A stretch of 21,692 nt of DNA. It comes from a virus (lineage: Duplodnaviria > Heunggongvirae > Uroviricota > Caudoviricetes). Numbering within the stretch: the stretch's first letter is position 1; each line of letters begins with the position of its first letter. The DNA is taken from IMG/VR virus record IMGVR_UViG_2562617086_000013. One strand, 5' to 3'. Both the position numbers and the translations under genes were made by a program. The notes beneath the pieces are model-generated. The model did no database searches. It was not told where the DNA came from and worked only from the letters and a program-made list of their open reading frames with translations. Below, piece after piece: positions 4,282-6,468 of this stretch.

Positions 4282-4343
4282 CGGTCTCGAAAACCGGAGT
4301 AGGGGCAACTCTACCGGGGGTTCAAATCCCCCTCTCTCCGCCA
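4282..4343 (+). tRNA. 3' fragment (62 nt) of a tRNA-Ser gene (serU-like), not a complete tRNA; att-site remnant
   Basis: CGGTCTCGAAAACCGGAGTAGGGGCAACTCTACCGGGGGTTCAAATCCCCCTCTCTCCGCCA matches, from my recollection of E. coli serU, the variable-arm-to-CCA part of tRNA-Ser; no D-arm or 5' acceptor strand upstream. Confidence 0.7.
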
Positions 4344-4924
4344 CTTTATCAATGACTTATCTCCCGACTTCCCGTCTTGCTTTTCCTAAACAGAACAATC
4401 GTAGAATATTCTTGAAGGGTTAGATCGTCACTGTTTTCTGTTCGATACTGTGACATTCAGCACTTGATTCGCTATGGATCTGACAGGAAGGTTTTGAGCG
4501 AAAATCTGCAGTTATTCAGTCGTTTTCTTATCGGTCACCATTATTCTTTTAGACATTGATCCTACAAAGCTGCCGCAAAGTTGGTGGTGGGAACTGAAGT
4601 TGCGTAGAGAAGGGGTCAATACCCGGAGGCAAACATGGGCTGGCAAAAGTGTAGCGGTATTAGGCGCAGCTATTTAGCCTAGTTATGTTTTATGAAAACT
4701 TGATATCATATAAGTGTCTTACTTATTGGCTGTAAATAAGTTTTTCCTAAGGAATTGTTTCTTGAGTATCATTTGTAACTGTAACGGAATTTATAATCCT
4801 TTGCTTTATTGTTACGGTATTTTTTATCACACCCTATTTTTAGTGGTTTTTATACTGAAGTTTGGCAAAGTGAACTTTATATACATATACTTCATCCTGG
4901 TTTCAGTTAAATTGGGGGGATGAT

Positions 4925-5668
4925 ATGGCAACTACATGTTCAGTTATATTGATTTTGGAGTCCTTTGATGTTTATTTCGGAAAAGAGAGTGTGTTTCTGG
5001 AGAGAGGTTCATCTGTACTTGTCGACTCTAGCTCTAGAGATTTTTTCCTGACATATCCTGAAAGAGTGATAGTGGCGGATTTTGGCGCTGAGTTTATTAG
5101 TCGCTATTTGAAAGCTAATAACTTAAGGGATATTTCTGATTGTAGGGAATATCCATCTTATTTAAAAATAAACTTTGCTGACTTCAGTTTAATTAAAGGA
5201 TTAATTAGTTGGGCTAATCACTGTGCTGAATACATAGAAATTTTTGATGAGTCTATTGCTTTTACATGTCTCTCTGCATTTTCTTCTGAAAAACAATTTG
5301 GAGTATTTCTGTTTGGATGTTTGAAAAGCACAGGGGCTAAAGTTAAAACGATTATTCATACGGATTTATCTGCACCATGGCGTCTTAAGGATATATCATC
5401 AAGATTATATCTCAGCGAAAGTTTACTAAAGAGGAAATTGAAAGAAGAGGGGGTATCATTCAGTAAGATCATACTTGATGAGAGGATGCAAATGGCTGAA
5501 TATTTACTCAGCACTCGTTGTTATCCTATTAGTAAAGTAGCTAAGGTCTGTGGTTATGCCAGTGTCTCATACTTTACTTATGTATTTAGACGTTATTTTG
5601 GTGTTTCTCCAAGTCAATACTCTCAGAGGAGTTCAGAAAGTAAAATTCTTACTCACCAGGGAATCTGA
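4925..5668 (+). CDS. AraC/XylS-family transcriptional regulator (AppY/EnvY/Rns-like), AT-rich
   Basis: C-terminal AraC HTH signature (..ISKVAKVCGYASVSYFTYVFRRYFGVSPSQY); strong G-rich RBS before ATG 4925; low-GC gene in a low-GC islet. Confidence 0.75.
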   Translation: MATTCSVILILESFDVYFGKESVFLERGSSVLVDSSSRDFFLTYPERVIVADFGAEFISRYLKANNLRDISDCREYPSYLKINFADFSLIKGLISWANHCAEYIEIFDESIAFTCLSAFSSEKQFGVFLFGCLKSTGAKVKTIIHTDLSAPWRLKDISSRLYLSESLLKRKLKEEGVSFSKIILDERMQMAEYLLSTRCYPISKVAKVCGYASVSYFTYVFRRYFGVSPSQYSQRSSESKILTHQGI

Positions 5669-5676
5669 TCATTGTT

Positions 5677-6130
5677 CTTGCCCCCTTATTTCCAGACAGG
5701 GGGGGTATCTTAAGTTAACGTTACCCGCTGACGTCGATATTCTCGCGGAGAGCGATAACCCAACGCACTGTGCGGATGGTTTTCATTGTAATGTTCGATC
5801 GCCACTGCAAGATTATGCAATGCCGTTCTTACATTCGGTTTCGGCATGAACGCGATGTAGTCTTCCTTCATCGTTTTCACGAACCTTTCTGCAATTCCAT
5901 TACTCTGAGGACTGCTGATTGCCGTTGTGCAGGGCTCCAGATTCAACTCTCTGGCGAACTGCCGTGTTTCATGCGCTCTATACGCTGAACCGTTATCTGT
6001 CAGCCACTGGATGGACTGTTCCGGTACTTTATCGCCAAAGCGTTTTTCTATCGCTCCTAACATGACATCCTGCACTGTCGCTTTATCGTAACCTCCCGTG
6101 CTTGCGGCCCAGTCTATGGCTTCACGATCG
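5677..6130 (-). mobile_element. IS2-like (IS3 family) remnant: right terminal inverted repeat plus 3' part of the transposase gene
   Basis: Minus-strand terminus TGTCTGGAAATAAGGGGGCAA resembles the IS2 right IR; transposase C-terminus follows. The inner boundary (about 6130) is approximate; the rest of the element is absent. Confidence 0.5.
5710..6075 (-). pseudogene. IS3-family (IS2-group) transposase OrfB, C-terminal fragment
   Basis: ..[58 protein letters not shown]-domain C-terminus; N-terminal two thirds missing. Confidence 0.65.
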
Positions 6131-6422
6131 CAACAGTCCAGGGCGATTCATCTGGGCCAATCCTTGCTCATAACAGGCATTCACTTCAGTCATGGCAGAA
6201 AGGTATGCATGCTGGAGAAGTCGTGAAAGAAAAGAAGACTGCTGCGCCGTTTGTCGTCACGTTTATCTTCATTGGCTATGCAAGTCGTAATACAAGGTGG
6301 GACAAAACTGAGACACATAAGGCCTCGCAATGGCTTGCAAGGCTTTACATGTTTTGATGTGGTGGGACGTGTGAGCGCAGTGTTGATGGGGTAATGCTTT
6401 GAATTAGAAGCGGATTCTTATA

Positions 6423-6468
6423 ATTCGTAATGCGAAGGTCGTAGGTTCGACTCCTATTATCGGCACCA
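6423..6468 (+). tRNA. 3' fragment (46 nt) of a tRNA-Thr gene (thrW-like); probable attL of the P4-like element
   Basis: ATTCGTAATGCGAAGGTCGTAGGTTCGACTCCTATTATCGGCACCA matches, from my recollection of E. coli thrW, anticodon loop through CCA; upstream sequence lacks the 5' acceptor and D arms; integrase begins 160 bp downstream. Confidence 0.7.

Follow-up and report, generated by a model that had tools for sequence, protein, structure and literature searches.

Two partial tRNA genes in the thrW island of Escherichia coli O157:H7: a tandem-integration repeat and a probable fossil serU attachment site carried within a prophage

The window, a 21,692-nucleotide stretch of DNA that was analysed over its full length, corresponds on sequence comparison to the thrW island of Escherichia coli O157:H7, in which prophage Sp1 (CP-933H) is followed by the P4-like element Sp2 (CP-933I). 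It carries two tRNA gene pieces that lack their 5' parts, and we consider it likely (a probability of roughly 0.8) that the thrW piece is a repeat generated by tandem integration and that the serU piece is a fossil attR transported as phage cargo. The window is identical to strain TW14359 at the thrW island, differing in that an invertible tail-fibre segment lies in the opposite orientation in TW14359. Elements are arranged along the island in the order thrW, Sp1, a 46-nt repeat, Sp2, a core matching at 16 of 17 positions, and native flanking DNA, and this order upholds the proposal in the preliminary description that the pieces are scars of stacked or tandem integration.

The serU piece occupies 4282-4343 (plus strand) and is identical at 62 of 62 positions to the 3' end of the K-12 serU gene for tRNA-Ser(CGA), beginning in the 5' strand of the anticodon stem and running to the CCA end. 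The thrW piece occupies 6423-6468 (plus strand) and is identical at 46 of 46 positions to the 3' part of the intact gene for tRNA-Thr(CGU) in O157:H7 TW14359, with the final base of the anticodon stem as its first; the T at position 6469 also agrees with thrW and extends the match to 47 nt. The search for intact copies that had been recommended earlier locates both in TW14359, thrW at 302,543-302,618 and serU at 2,618,642-2,618,731, the latter 2.3 Mb from the window. No intact tRNA is present in the window itself, as had been claimed: ARAGORN makes no tRNA or tmRNA calls across the 21,692 bases, and Rfam at gathering thresholds reports ALIL, C4 and isrK only. With permissive Rfam settings the lone tRNA-clan match is a sub-threshold partial at 4262-4332, scoring 27.5 bits where the gathering score is 47, and thus neither ARAGORN nor the covariance model finds an intact cloverleaf anywhere in the window. 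The 3' parts of the two pieces (27 nt for serU and 34 nt for thrW) occur once each in the window, with none expected from 100 shuffles. Chance resemblance to tRNAs, or membership of the pieces in intact tRNA genes that went unrecognised, is refuted by these exact 62-nt and 46-nt identities together with the absence of tRNA calls, and we give it no weight; the DNA upstream of the pieces is moreover unlike tRNA 5' halves.

The thrW piece is, as judged from its sequence relationships, a direct repeat arising from tyrosine-integrase integration into thrW, and here the earlier view that the pieces mark element junctions is correct, the piece being the joint between Sp1 and Sp2. Intact thrW lies 5,437 nt to the left of the window start in TW14359, directly adjoined by an Sp1 integrase remnant, so that the opposite end of Sp1 carries the full copy of this direct repeat, 11.9 kb upstream of the 46-nt piece and on the same strand. 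In the Sakai record Sp1 and Sp2 meet between 6451 and 6452, within the piece and at the 17-nt core (6452-6468) that serves as Sp2 attL, and the P4-type integrase of Sp2 begins 163 nt beyond the piece at 6631, in keeping with the satellite integrase noted previously. Immediately upstream, 6163-6422 (plus strand) is the right arm of an Sp1-type thrW phage (the attR arm), which is 93-99% conserved beside the thrW piece in genomes that have neither Sp2 nor the block carrying the regulator gene patE. The junction of this arm with the start of the piece (ATTCG) is invariant in WCHEC115106, EC6622 and several IMG/VR contigs, and across genomes the DNA beyond the CCA of the piece falls into at least five different contexts. 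Every copy compared is broken at the anticodon loop, which is the expected position for an integrase crossover block. At the far end of Sp2, a degenerate third core (20651-20666, plus strand; 16 of 17 nt, with one G missing), identified by comparison with the WCHEC115106 attR and its native flank, constitutes Sp2 attR; the Sakai Sp2 feature stops one base before it, and the native DNA downstream of thrW resumes at 20667. A search of the Sp2 right end for a perfect third thrW repeat, allowing up to 3 mismatches over 34 nt, returned none, leaving the 16/17 core only.

In the reading that we favour, Sp1, which is a degraded e14/lambdoid-type phage whose integrase resembles IntD and lies next to thrW, duplicated the tRNA from the anticodon loop to the CCA on integration, and Sp2, a P4-like satellite, uses only the last 17 nt of the tRNA; the piece is accordingly both Sp1 attR and Sp2 attL. 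The functional thrW is the copy that bounds Sp1 on its far left, beyond the window, and the 16/17 core at the right seals Sp2 against the native flank. Either Sp1 may have entered the intact tRNA gene of an Sp2 lysogen, or Sp2 may have entered the attR piece of Sp1. There is experimental precedent for use of a resident attR, in that Sp10 integrates into that of Rac (PMC2669165), and Sp1 and Sp2 are reported to be unable to excise or circularise in strain Sakai (PMC2669165). Of the thrW elements described here, the integrases are either truncated or interrupted by IS629, whereas Sakai has an intact Sp2 integrase; the right core matches at 16 of 17 positions. The locus is the same as the Sp1 (CP-933H)-Sp2 (CP-933I) tandem of Sakai and EDL933, although the Sp1 repeat measures 46-47 nt in the window and reaches 64 nt in the presence of the native flank, compared with 17 nt in the Sakai annotation. 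The thrW piece is thus a routine tandem-integration repeat that is already implicit in that annotation.

The preliminary description had instead proposed that IS-mediated deletion took away the 5' part of the gene and left the thrW piece behind, and a truncated IS3-family element does lie about 280 nt upstream. The two are separated, however, by 260 nt of conserved Sp1-type phage arm, and the DNA upstream of the piece at 6163-6422 is entirely of this kind, with no IS sequence. The identical junction is present in EC6622 without the IS remnant there and in WCHEC115106 with a shorter remnant, intact thrW is found at the opposite end of Sp1 (5.4 kb left of the window), and every copy is broken at the anticodon loop. 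Since the same arm-piece junction recurs with at least five different right-hand contexts beyond it, loss of the 5' half through an IS-mediated deletion is not supported; these observations contradict it, and we consider it extremely improbable.

Sp2 begins with a left arm and P4-type integrase (6469-9125, plus strand; PGAP, and Pfam Arm-DNA-bind_3 and Phage_int_M matches) that is split by an IS629/IS1203 copy, mapped by BLAST to 7151-8460, in the window and in TW14359 alike; the ALIL pseudoknot of this copy is at 8009-8125 (Rfam). The P4-like genes annotated by PGAP and in Sakai code for an integrase, a primase, a polarity suppression protein, a capsid-size protein and ogr/delta, and Rfam C4 and isrK matches lie at 15658-15891. 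Sp2 thus has the features by which P4-like satellites are recognised: a P4-type integrase, an alpha primase-helicase, sid/psu/delta genes and an immunity RNA.

A more complex relationship is seen with the serU piece, which by its sequence context is not a junction of this chromosome and lies inside Sp1, so that the earlier description of it as an element boundary does not hold; it is accompanied by 278 nt of host flank and is found in free phages. To its left is a LEM-3-like GIY-YIG gene (3329-4153, minus strand; Pfam PF22945, PGAP), the last phage cargo gene before a serU-type arm, and the same gene closes the complete serU prophage of strain Q5 on the right, as it does the thrW prophages of WCHEC115106 and EC6622. 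The arm itself (4154-4281, plus strand), the phage right arm of the fossil serU-type attR, is 98.4% identical over 128 nt to the arm abutting the displaced serU piece at the Q5 serU locus, and EC6622 retains an arm of this type. To the right of the core is captured bacterial DNA (4344-4621, plus strand) of the kind directly downstream of serU. Over 4282-4621 (340 nt, of which 278 nt are beyond the core) the window is 97% identical to, and collinear with, the serU-yodB spacer of K-12 and O157, and homology to all serU loci compared ends at 4621. This downstream stretch is matched in 5,423 of 5,426 E. coli genomes. Strain Q5 provides a complete counterpart in place, with serU, int, phage genes, the GIY-YIG gene, the arm, the 62-nt piece, the flank and zinT in succession.

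Strain O157 also holds a prophage at serU, Sp14 (CP-933U), with a near-identical attR piece of 61-62 nt, and the serU piece in the window could accordingly be imagined as a local junction from an inversion or translocation between Sp14 and Sp1, or as a recent copy of the O157 serU locus. Several observations stand against this. The O157 serU locus is complete on both sides, with intact serU and int on one and the Sp14 attR, flank and yodB on the other (Sp14 attL and attR lie at about 2.57 and 2.62 Mb of the chromosome, the fossil core at about 312 kb), and the window copy differs from the resident Sp14 attR and flank at about 12 of 340 positions. Phage-borne copies of the flank form their own group, with 2-7 differences among themselves and 10-15 from resident loci, and the window copy clusters with them. 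Furthermore, other strains have the same block at att-lambda, and free phages carry it too. With a complete resident locus and a divergent flank, rearrangement or local duplication is contradicted, and we regard it as very unlikely. The resemblance to Sp14/CP-933U and to SerU-LTIIb-type lambdoid prophages is that their displaced piece comprises the same 61-62 nt and starts in the anticodon stem, but those are true serU-locus junctions, whereas the copy in the window has moved to the thrW island, where it adjoins a different phage arm.

The serU flank is interrupted at 4622-4677 (plus strand) by the 3'-terminal 56 nt of an IS630, a 98% match to the terminus of the IS630 annotated on plasmid pINV, and this is the break point of the serU-flank homology. 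Three features of the window had gone unmentioned before: the 278-nt serU-locus homology past the CCA, the 56-nt IS630 end at 4622-4677 and the degenerate core at 20651-20666. Beyond the IS630 end is an AT-rich islet (31-36% GC in the GC profile) with an AraC-family gene at 4925-5668, much as the preliminary description had it. The gene (plus strand; NCBIfam matches to YdeO, GadX and HilD-type regulators) is patE (Z0321/ECs0287), an AraC/XylS-family regulator and the sole AraC gene of Sp1/CP-933H. PatE activates acid resistance and represses LEE genes. Z0321 has been described as a CP-933H regulator in O-island 8 and named PatE (PMC10877973; PMC2907692). The islet is bounded on the right by a truncated IS3-family element (5690-6146, minus strand) in which only the C-terminal half of the transposase remains (a partial NCBIfam IS2 TnpB match of 229 bits). 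It had been called an IS2 remnant, and while membership in the IS2 group is correct, the closest element is ISEc48 (96% DNA identity); the Sakai repeat_region reads 'ISEc48 partial'. As with PsrA, PsrB and other phage morons that encode AraC-like regulators of acid resistance and type III secretion, patE of CP-933H is a cargo regulator dispensable for phage growth. What the window adds is that the gene has an IS630 end on one side and an ISEc48 end on the other and is linked to a fossil serU attR; nothing specific on this structural context was found in the literature searched.

Three free lambdoid phages, ev099, mEp332 and PhiR70_1, have the segment 4281-6146 at 99% identity within their b region, ahead of attP-int. 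The block is also found in prophages at thrW and att-lambda in other strains. In ev099 it lies between tfa and int-xis, and the block common to ev099, mEp332 and strain XB2 ends at 6146. Among IMG/VR contigs, 30 have the junction of the flank with IS630, intact serU accompanies it in none of the 30, and all the IMG/VR loci with enough right-hand sequence to judge are of the thrW type. The same junction, searched as an exact pattern in one genome per species, gave 0 hits and so was found in no other species; with E. coli represented by one genome, the scan is hardly informative about E. coli itself. A chimeric query joining intact serU to the flank and patE was compared with 5,426 complete E. 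coli genomes and the matches ranked by query coverage times identity; the best 25 all begin at query base 20, such that the 5' half of serU is not included, and the full arrangement is absent among them. The patE block was not seen at a true serU locus in the best-ranked matches from the 5,426 genomes or in the IMG/VR loci examined, and because no genome was found with that arrangement it is one that we infer for the donor.

The serU piece with its host flank is probably a fossil serU attR that was captured by aberrant excision and then spread by recombination among phages. We infer the following steps for its capture, and their order. The serU locus would once have held an e14-like prophage that ended on the right with the GIY-YIG gene, an arrangement still seen in Q5. 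Its attR and 278 nt of adjacent chromosome would have become joined to the patE islet, with the left join produced by a deletion ending within IS630 and the right side bounded by the truncated ISEc48, and the whole block would have entered a phage genome, coming to lie between attP and the tail-fibre genes. The likeliest route would be aberrant excision of the lambda-bio type, followed by recombination with phages having other integration modules. The block is now carried by Sp1-like phages that integrate at thrW and by phages that integrate at att-lambda. The likeness to lambda bio and gal specialised transducing phages is that a hybrid att site (phage arm and core) is followed by collinear host DNA, the fossil is in the b region just before attP-int of free phages, and a counterpart exists in place in Q5. 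It differs in that the captured host flank is merely 278 nt, is cut by an IS630 end and is fused to an AT-rich regulator islet, and in that the carriers now use other attachment sites (thrW and att-lambda). The block has a single origin and yet two different serU-type arms are fused to it exactly at the core, so that one aberrant excision alone is insufficient and an additional exchange at or near the core is needed.

A further possibility, which we regard as rather unlikely, is that the fossil core is still a substrate for serU-specific integrases, and that exchange at the core moved the flank-patE block between phages or the core served as a secondary attB. The two unrelated arms, one of the GIY-YIG type and the other of the ev099 type that has arm motifs in common with Sp14, are fused to the single-origin block at what is, to within 1 to 4 nt, the same nucleotide. 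In EC6622 the arm is followed by no more than the first 15 nt of the core, as far as the anticodon loop, after which unrelated DNA begins, as expected for a break in the crossover region. Integration into a resident attR has also been shown experimentally with Sp10 and Rac (PMC2669165). However, homologous recombination inside the 1.9-kb block, or successive lysogens at the ancestral serU locus, could give the same pattern, and none of the loci examined has a phage within the fossil core. If integrases such as that of Sp14, which is in the same O157 cell, did recognise the fossil core, it would be a portable secondary attachment or exchange site; the patE block could then hop between phages of differing integration specificity, and the thrW island could be made more prone to rearrange with the serU prophage.

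The feature is of a known kind, and these comparisons settle the anatomy of a much-studied pathogen locus. They also illustrate that partial tRNA genes are not always the edges of the element that contains them, and tools that delimit islands and prophages by tRNA pieces would wrongly split Sp1 at 4282-4343. The patE gene has as neighbours a captured attachment scar and a stretch of bacterial chromosome, trimmed by two IS elements, and it is now in circulation both in lambdoid phages that form plaques and in the defective Sp1. The serU piece thus provides a concrete record of a phage gaining a host-adaptive regulator.

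Window positions 4000-6900 match E. coli O157:H7 genomes at 100% identity, and this region is present at full length in 318 of 5,426 complete E. coli genomes. The gene order in strain TW14359 is proA, intact thrW, a truncated integrase, IS629, remnants of cI-cro-cII-O-P, tail-fibre genes, pin, a GIY-YIG gene, a serU piece, an AraC gene, an IS remnant, a thrW piece, a P4-type integrase split by IS629, P4-like genes and yagP. In TW14359 coordinates the window begins at base 308,056, and intact thrW (302,543-302,618), whose whereabouts the preliminary description had left unplaced, therefore ends 5,437 nt to the left of the window. 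Two 20-nt inverted repeats (786-805 and 2636-2655) bound a segment encoding the tail-fibre C-terminus and tfa, adjoining the Pin invertase gene (2681-3271). The segment (786-2655) lies in the orientation opposite to that in TW14359 (99.8% identity, reversed), and from its sequence looks like a switchable host-range segment within an otherwise defective Sp1 (CP-933H).

Both 5'-truncated tRNA fragments of the preliminary description are genuine, and the coordinates given for them are correct. The serU piece (4282-4343) matches the 3' part of K-12 serU, tRNA-Ser(CGA), at all 62 nt, beginning within the anticodon stem (5' strand), and the thrW piece (6423-6468) matches the 3' part of thrW, tRNA-Thr(CGU), at all 46 nt, beginning at the anticodon loop; the base after 6468 also matches thrW. 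Such 3' ends are not expected by chance, with no matches in 100 shuffles. As had been stated, the window holds no intact tRNA: ARAGORN calls neither a tRNA nor a tmRNA gene anywhere in it, and Rfam at gathering thresholds finds no tRNA there, its only hits being an ALIL pseudoknot, isrK and a C4 antisense RNA. The sole tRNA-clan match in a permissive Rfam scan of 4150-6650 is a sub-threshold partial hit at 4262-4332. The interpretation placed on these fragments is supported only in part.

Three thrW-related sites were compared: intact thrW, the thrW piece as the middle copy, and a copy at 20651-20666. After intact thrW comes TTTAAATCAATAAGTTAC, then DNA of the Sp1 integrase side, and the middle copy has Sp1 DNA before it and the Sp2 left arm (TCTCAACTTCC...) after it. 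The third site is a degenerate core, TCCTATTATCG-CACCA, with 16 of 17 core bases (one G is missing); it is the right-hand core of Sp2, and beyond it comes TTTAAATCAAGTAGTTACCCCATATTTAAATACACC..., the native downstream flank of thrW. This flank is identified by the arrangement in strain WCHEC115106, which carries a complete Sp1-like prophage at thrW without Sp2, and in which the same Sp1 arm and 46-nt piece lead directly into the native flank and then yagP-paoD; strain EC6622 has the same arrangement at the thrW piece. Among IMG/VR contigs the junction of the Sp1 arm with ATTCGTAATGCG...CACCA is invariant, and beyond it lies the native flank, the Sp2 arm or one of three other sequences. The Sp1-type direct repeat in WCHEC115106 (attL at 39-180 and attR at 14690-14860 of locus L007), where the native flank follows, is 64 nt long, with 46 nt of thrW and 18 nt of downstream flank, and the phage attP therefore carries DNA past the tRNA end.

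The thrW piece has two roles: it is Sp1's attR, and the 17 nt at its end double as the attL core of Sp2. It is an ordinary att repeat, and the tandem integration that had been proposed is correct for thrW and already annotated there: 'prophage Sp1, lambda-like' and 'prophage Sp2, P4-like' abut in the Sakai record at a boundary that maps between window positions 6451 and 6452, which leaves the last 17 nt of the thrW piece on the Sp2 side, and the Sp2 feature ends at 20650. The further proposal, that an IS-mediated deletion removed the 5' half of the tRNA-Thr gene, is not supported, since the 260 nt directly upstream (6163-6422) are a conserved phage arm with no IS DNA. Either order of arrival would give an identical product, with Sp1 entering the intact tRNA of an Sp2 lysogen or Sp2 entering the attR fragment of Sp1; insertion into a resident attR has experimental precedent in Sp10 and Rac (PMC2669165).

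Sp2 has several further features. Its P4-type integrase is split by an IS629/IS1203 copy (7151-8460) that is present in TW14359 and absent from Sakai, and of which the ALIL pseudoknot (8009-8125) is the frameshift signal. Directly downstream of the integrase are three adjacent genes (9518-11218), annotated by PGAP as 'ABC-three component system protein', 'middle component 2' and 'AAA family ATPase'; this position in P4-like satellites is often home to defence genes. The isrK match (71.9 bits) lies beside the C4 antisense RNA (84 bits) at 15658-15891 in the P4-like immunity region, upstream of and overlapping an icd-like gene. A 22-nt motif, AATGTGTATAGGATTGTGTATA, occurs near both ends of Sp2 (6579-6600 and 20569-20590, the second copy 86% identical), and both are candidate arm-type binding sites for the integrase. 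Sakai Sp1 and Sp2 are reported to show no circularisation, replication or packaging (PMC2669165). The missing G in the right core and the IS629 in the integrase may explain the non-excision of Sp2.

With the serU piece, homology to the serU locus extends collinearly past the CCA for 278 nt more, as far as 4621. Over 340 nt (4282-4621) the match to K-12, and likewise to the serU locus of O157 itself, is at 97% identity, and the flank stretch belongs to the core genome, with matches in 5,423 of 5,426 E. coli genomes. O157 has an intact serU, also previously unplaced, at 2,618,642-2,618,731 with the Sp14 integrase adjoining, and at the far end of Sp14, beside yodB, its own displaced 61-62-nt serU fragment and flank, which makes the window copy the third serU core of that genome. 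A rearrangement product is rejected, as the O157 serU locus retains the intact gene, the Sp14 fragment and the flank, and a recent local copy is rejected because about 12 of 340 positions differ from the resident flank. An in-place counterpart is found in strain Q5, which has a complete 39-kb prophage at serU with the order serU, three small genes, integrase, yfdPQR, repressor, heads and tails, GIY-YIG, arm, the 62-nt piece, flank and zinT. The Q5 arm is 98.4% identical to window 4154-4281, and the window junction is therefore a genuine serU attR. The phage it derives from shares its backbone family with the WCHEC115106 and EC6622 thrW prophages.

At 4622 the serU-flank homology gives way to the last 56 nt of IS630 (4622-4677), a 3' remnant with its outer end toward patE. 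To its right are the AT-rich AraC-regulator islet noted previously (31-36% GC) and a truncated element that does belong to the IS2 group, as described, but is closest to ISEc48 and not to IS2; its outer end also faces patE. The regulator is the sole AraC-family gene of Sp1 and corresponds to Z0321/PatE, an RpoS-dependent acid-resistance activator and LEE repressor (PMC10877973; PMC2907692). The whole block from serU core to ISEc48 remnant (4281-6146) is 99% identical to a segment of phages ev099, mEp332 and PhiR70_1, which in ev099 follows stf-tfa and precedes attP, int and xis (the b region), and att-lambda prophages of XB2 and FCI1 have this segment at their right end. Phages that integrate at other sites now contain a true serU attR with adjoining host DNA. 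Compared with one another, the window, ev099, mEp332 and XB2 copies differ at 2-7 positions; against K-12, Q5 and the resident flank of O157 they differ at 10-15. All block copies compared have the IS630 junction; this mutual similarity and shared junction indicate a single origin. None of 30 IMG/VR contigs with the exact flank-IS630 junction has an intact serU, and the best-ranked matches to a chimeric serU, flank and patE query among 5,426 genomes all begin at query base 20, with no intact serU joined to the block. A scan of one genome per species did not find the junction elsewhere.

A plausible scenario is that a Q5-type serU lysogen had patE downstream, with IS630 and ISEc48 inserted on its two sides, that deletions from these elements trimmed the adjacent DNA, and that aberrant excision of the lambda-bio type then brought attR and neighbouring DNA into a phage genome, in which recombination with related phages would have supplied thrW-type or lambda-type attP-int modules. 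Capture by excision leaves unexplained that two unrelated serU-type arms, the GIY-YIG type and the ev099 type, are joined to the same block at the core. The ev099-type arm (L008, the ev099 locus, 8880-9000) and the Sp14 attR arm (L005, about 24660-24780) have no BLAST-level similarity yet share CTTGGAATATTCT and ATTTATTCCAA, candidate arm-type sites for the serU integrase of the Sp14 family. EC6622 (L044 5700-5840) retains the GIY-YIG gene and serU-type arm without the patE block, with just the first 15 nt of the serU core, to the anticodon loop, and then unrelated DNA, a capsid-gene fragment followed by flxA. The two arms at one core and the 15-nt core of EC6622 suggest at least one exchange at the serU core itself, possibly catalysed by an integrase, a reading of low probability.

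No description of the serU fossil with its host flank was found in the literature searched. It is a fresh example of a familiar class, in which temperate phages have captured host DNA and att scars, and to which morons bracketed by IS remnants also belong. The significance of the finding is modest, and the serU piece serves as a reminder that a partial tRNA need not mark the boundary of the element containing it.
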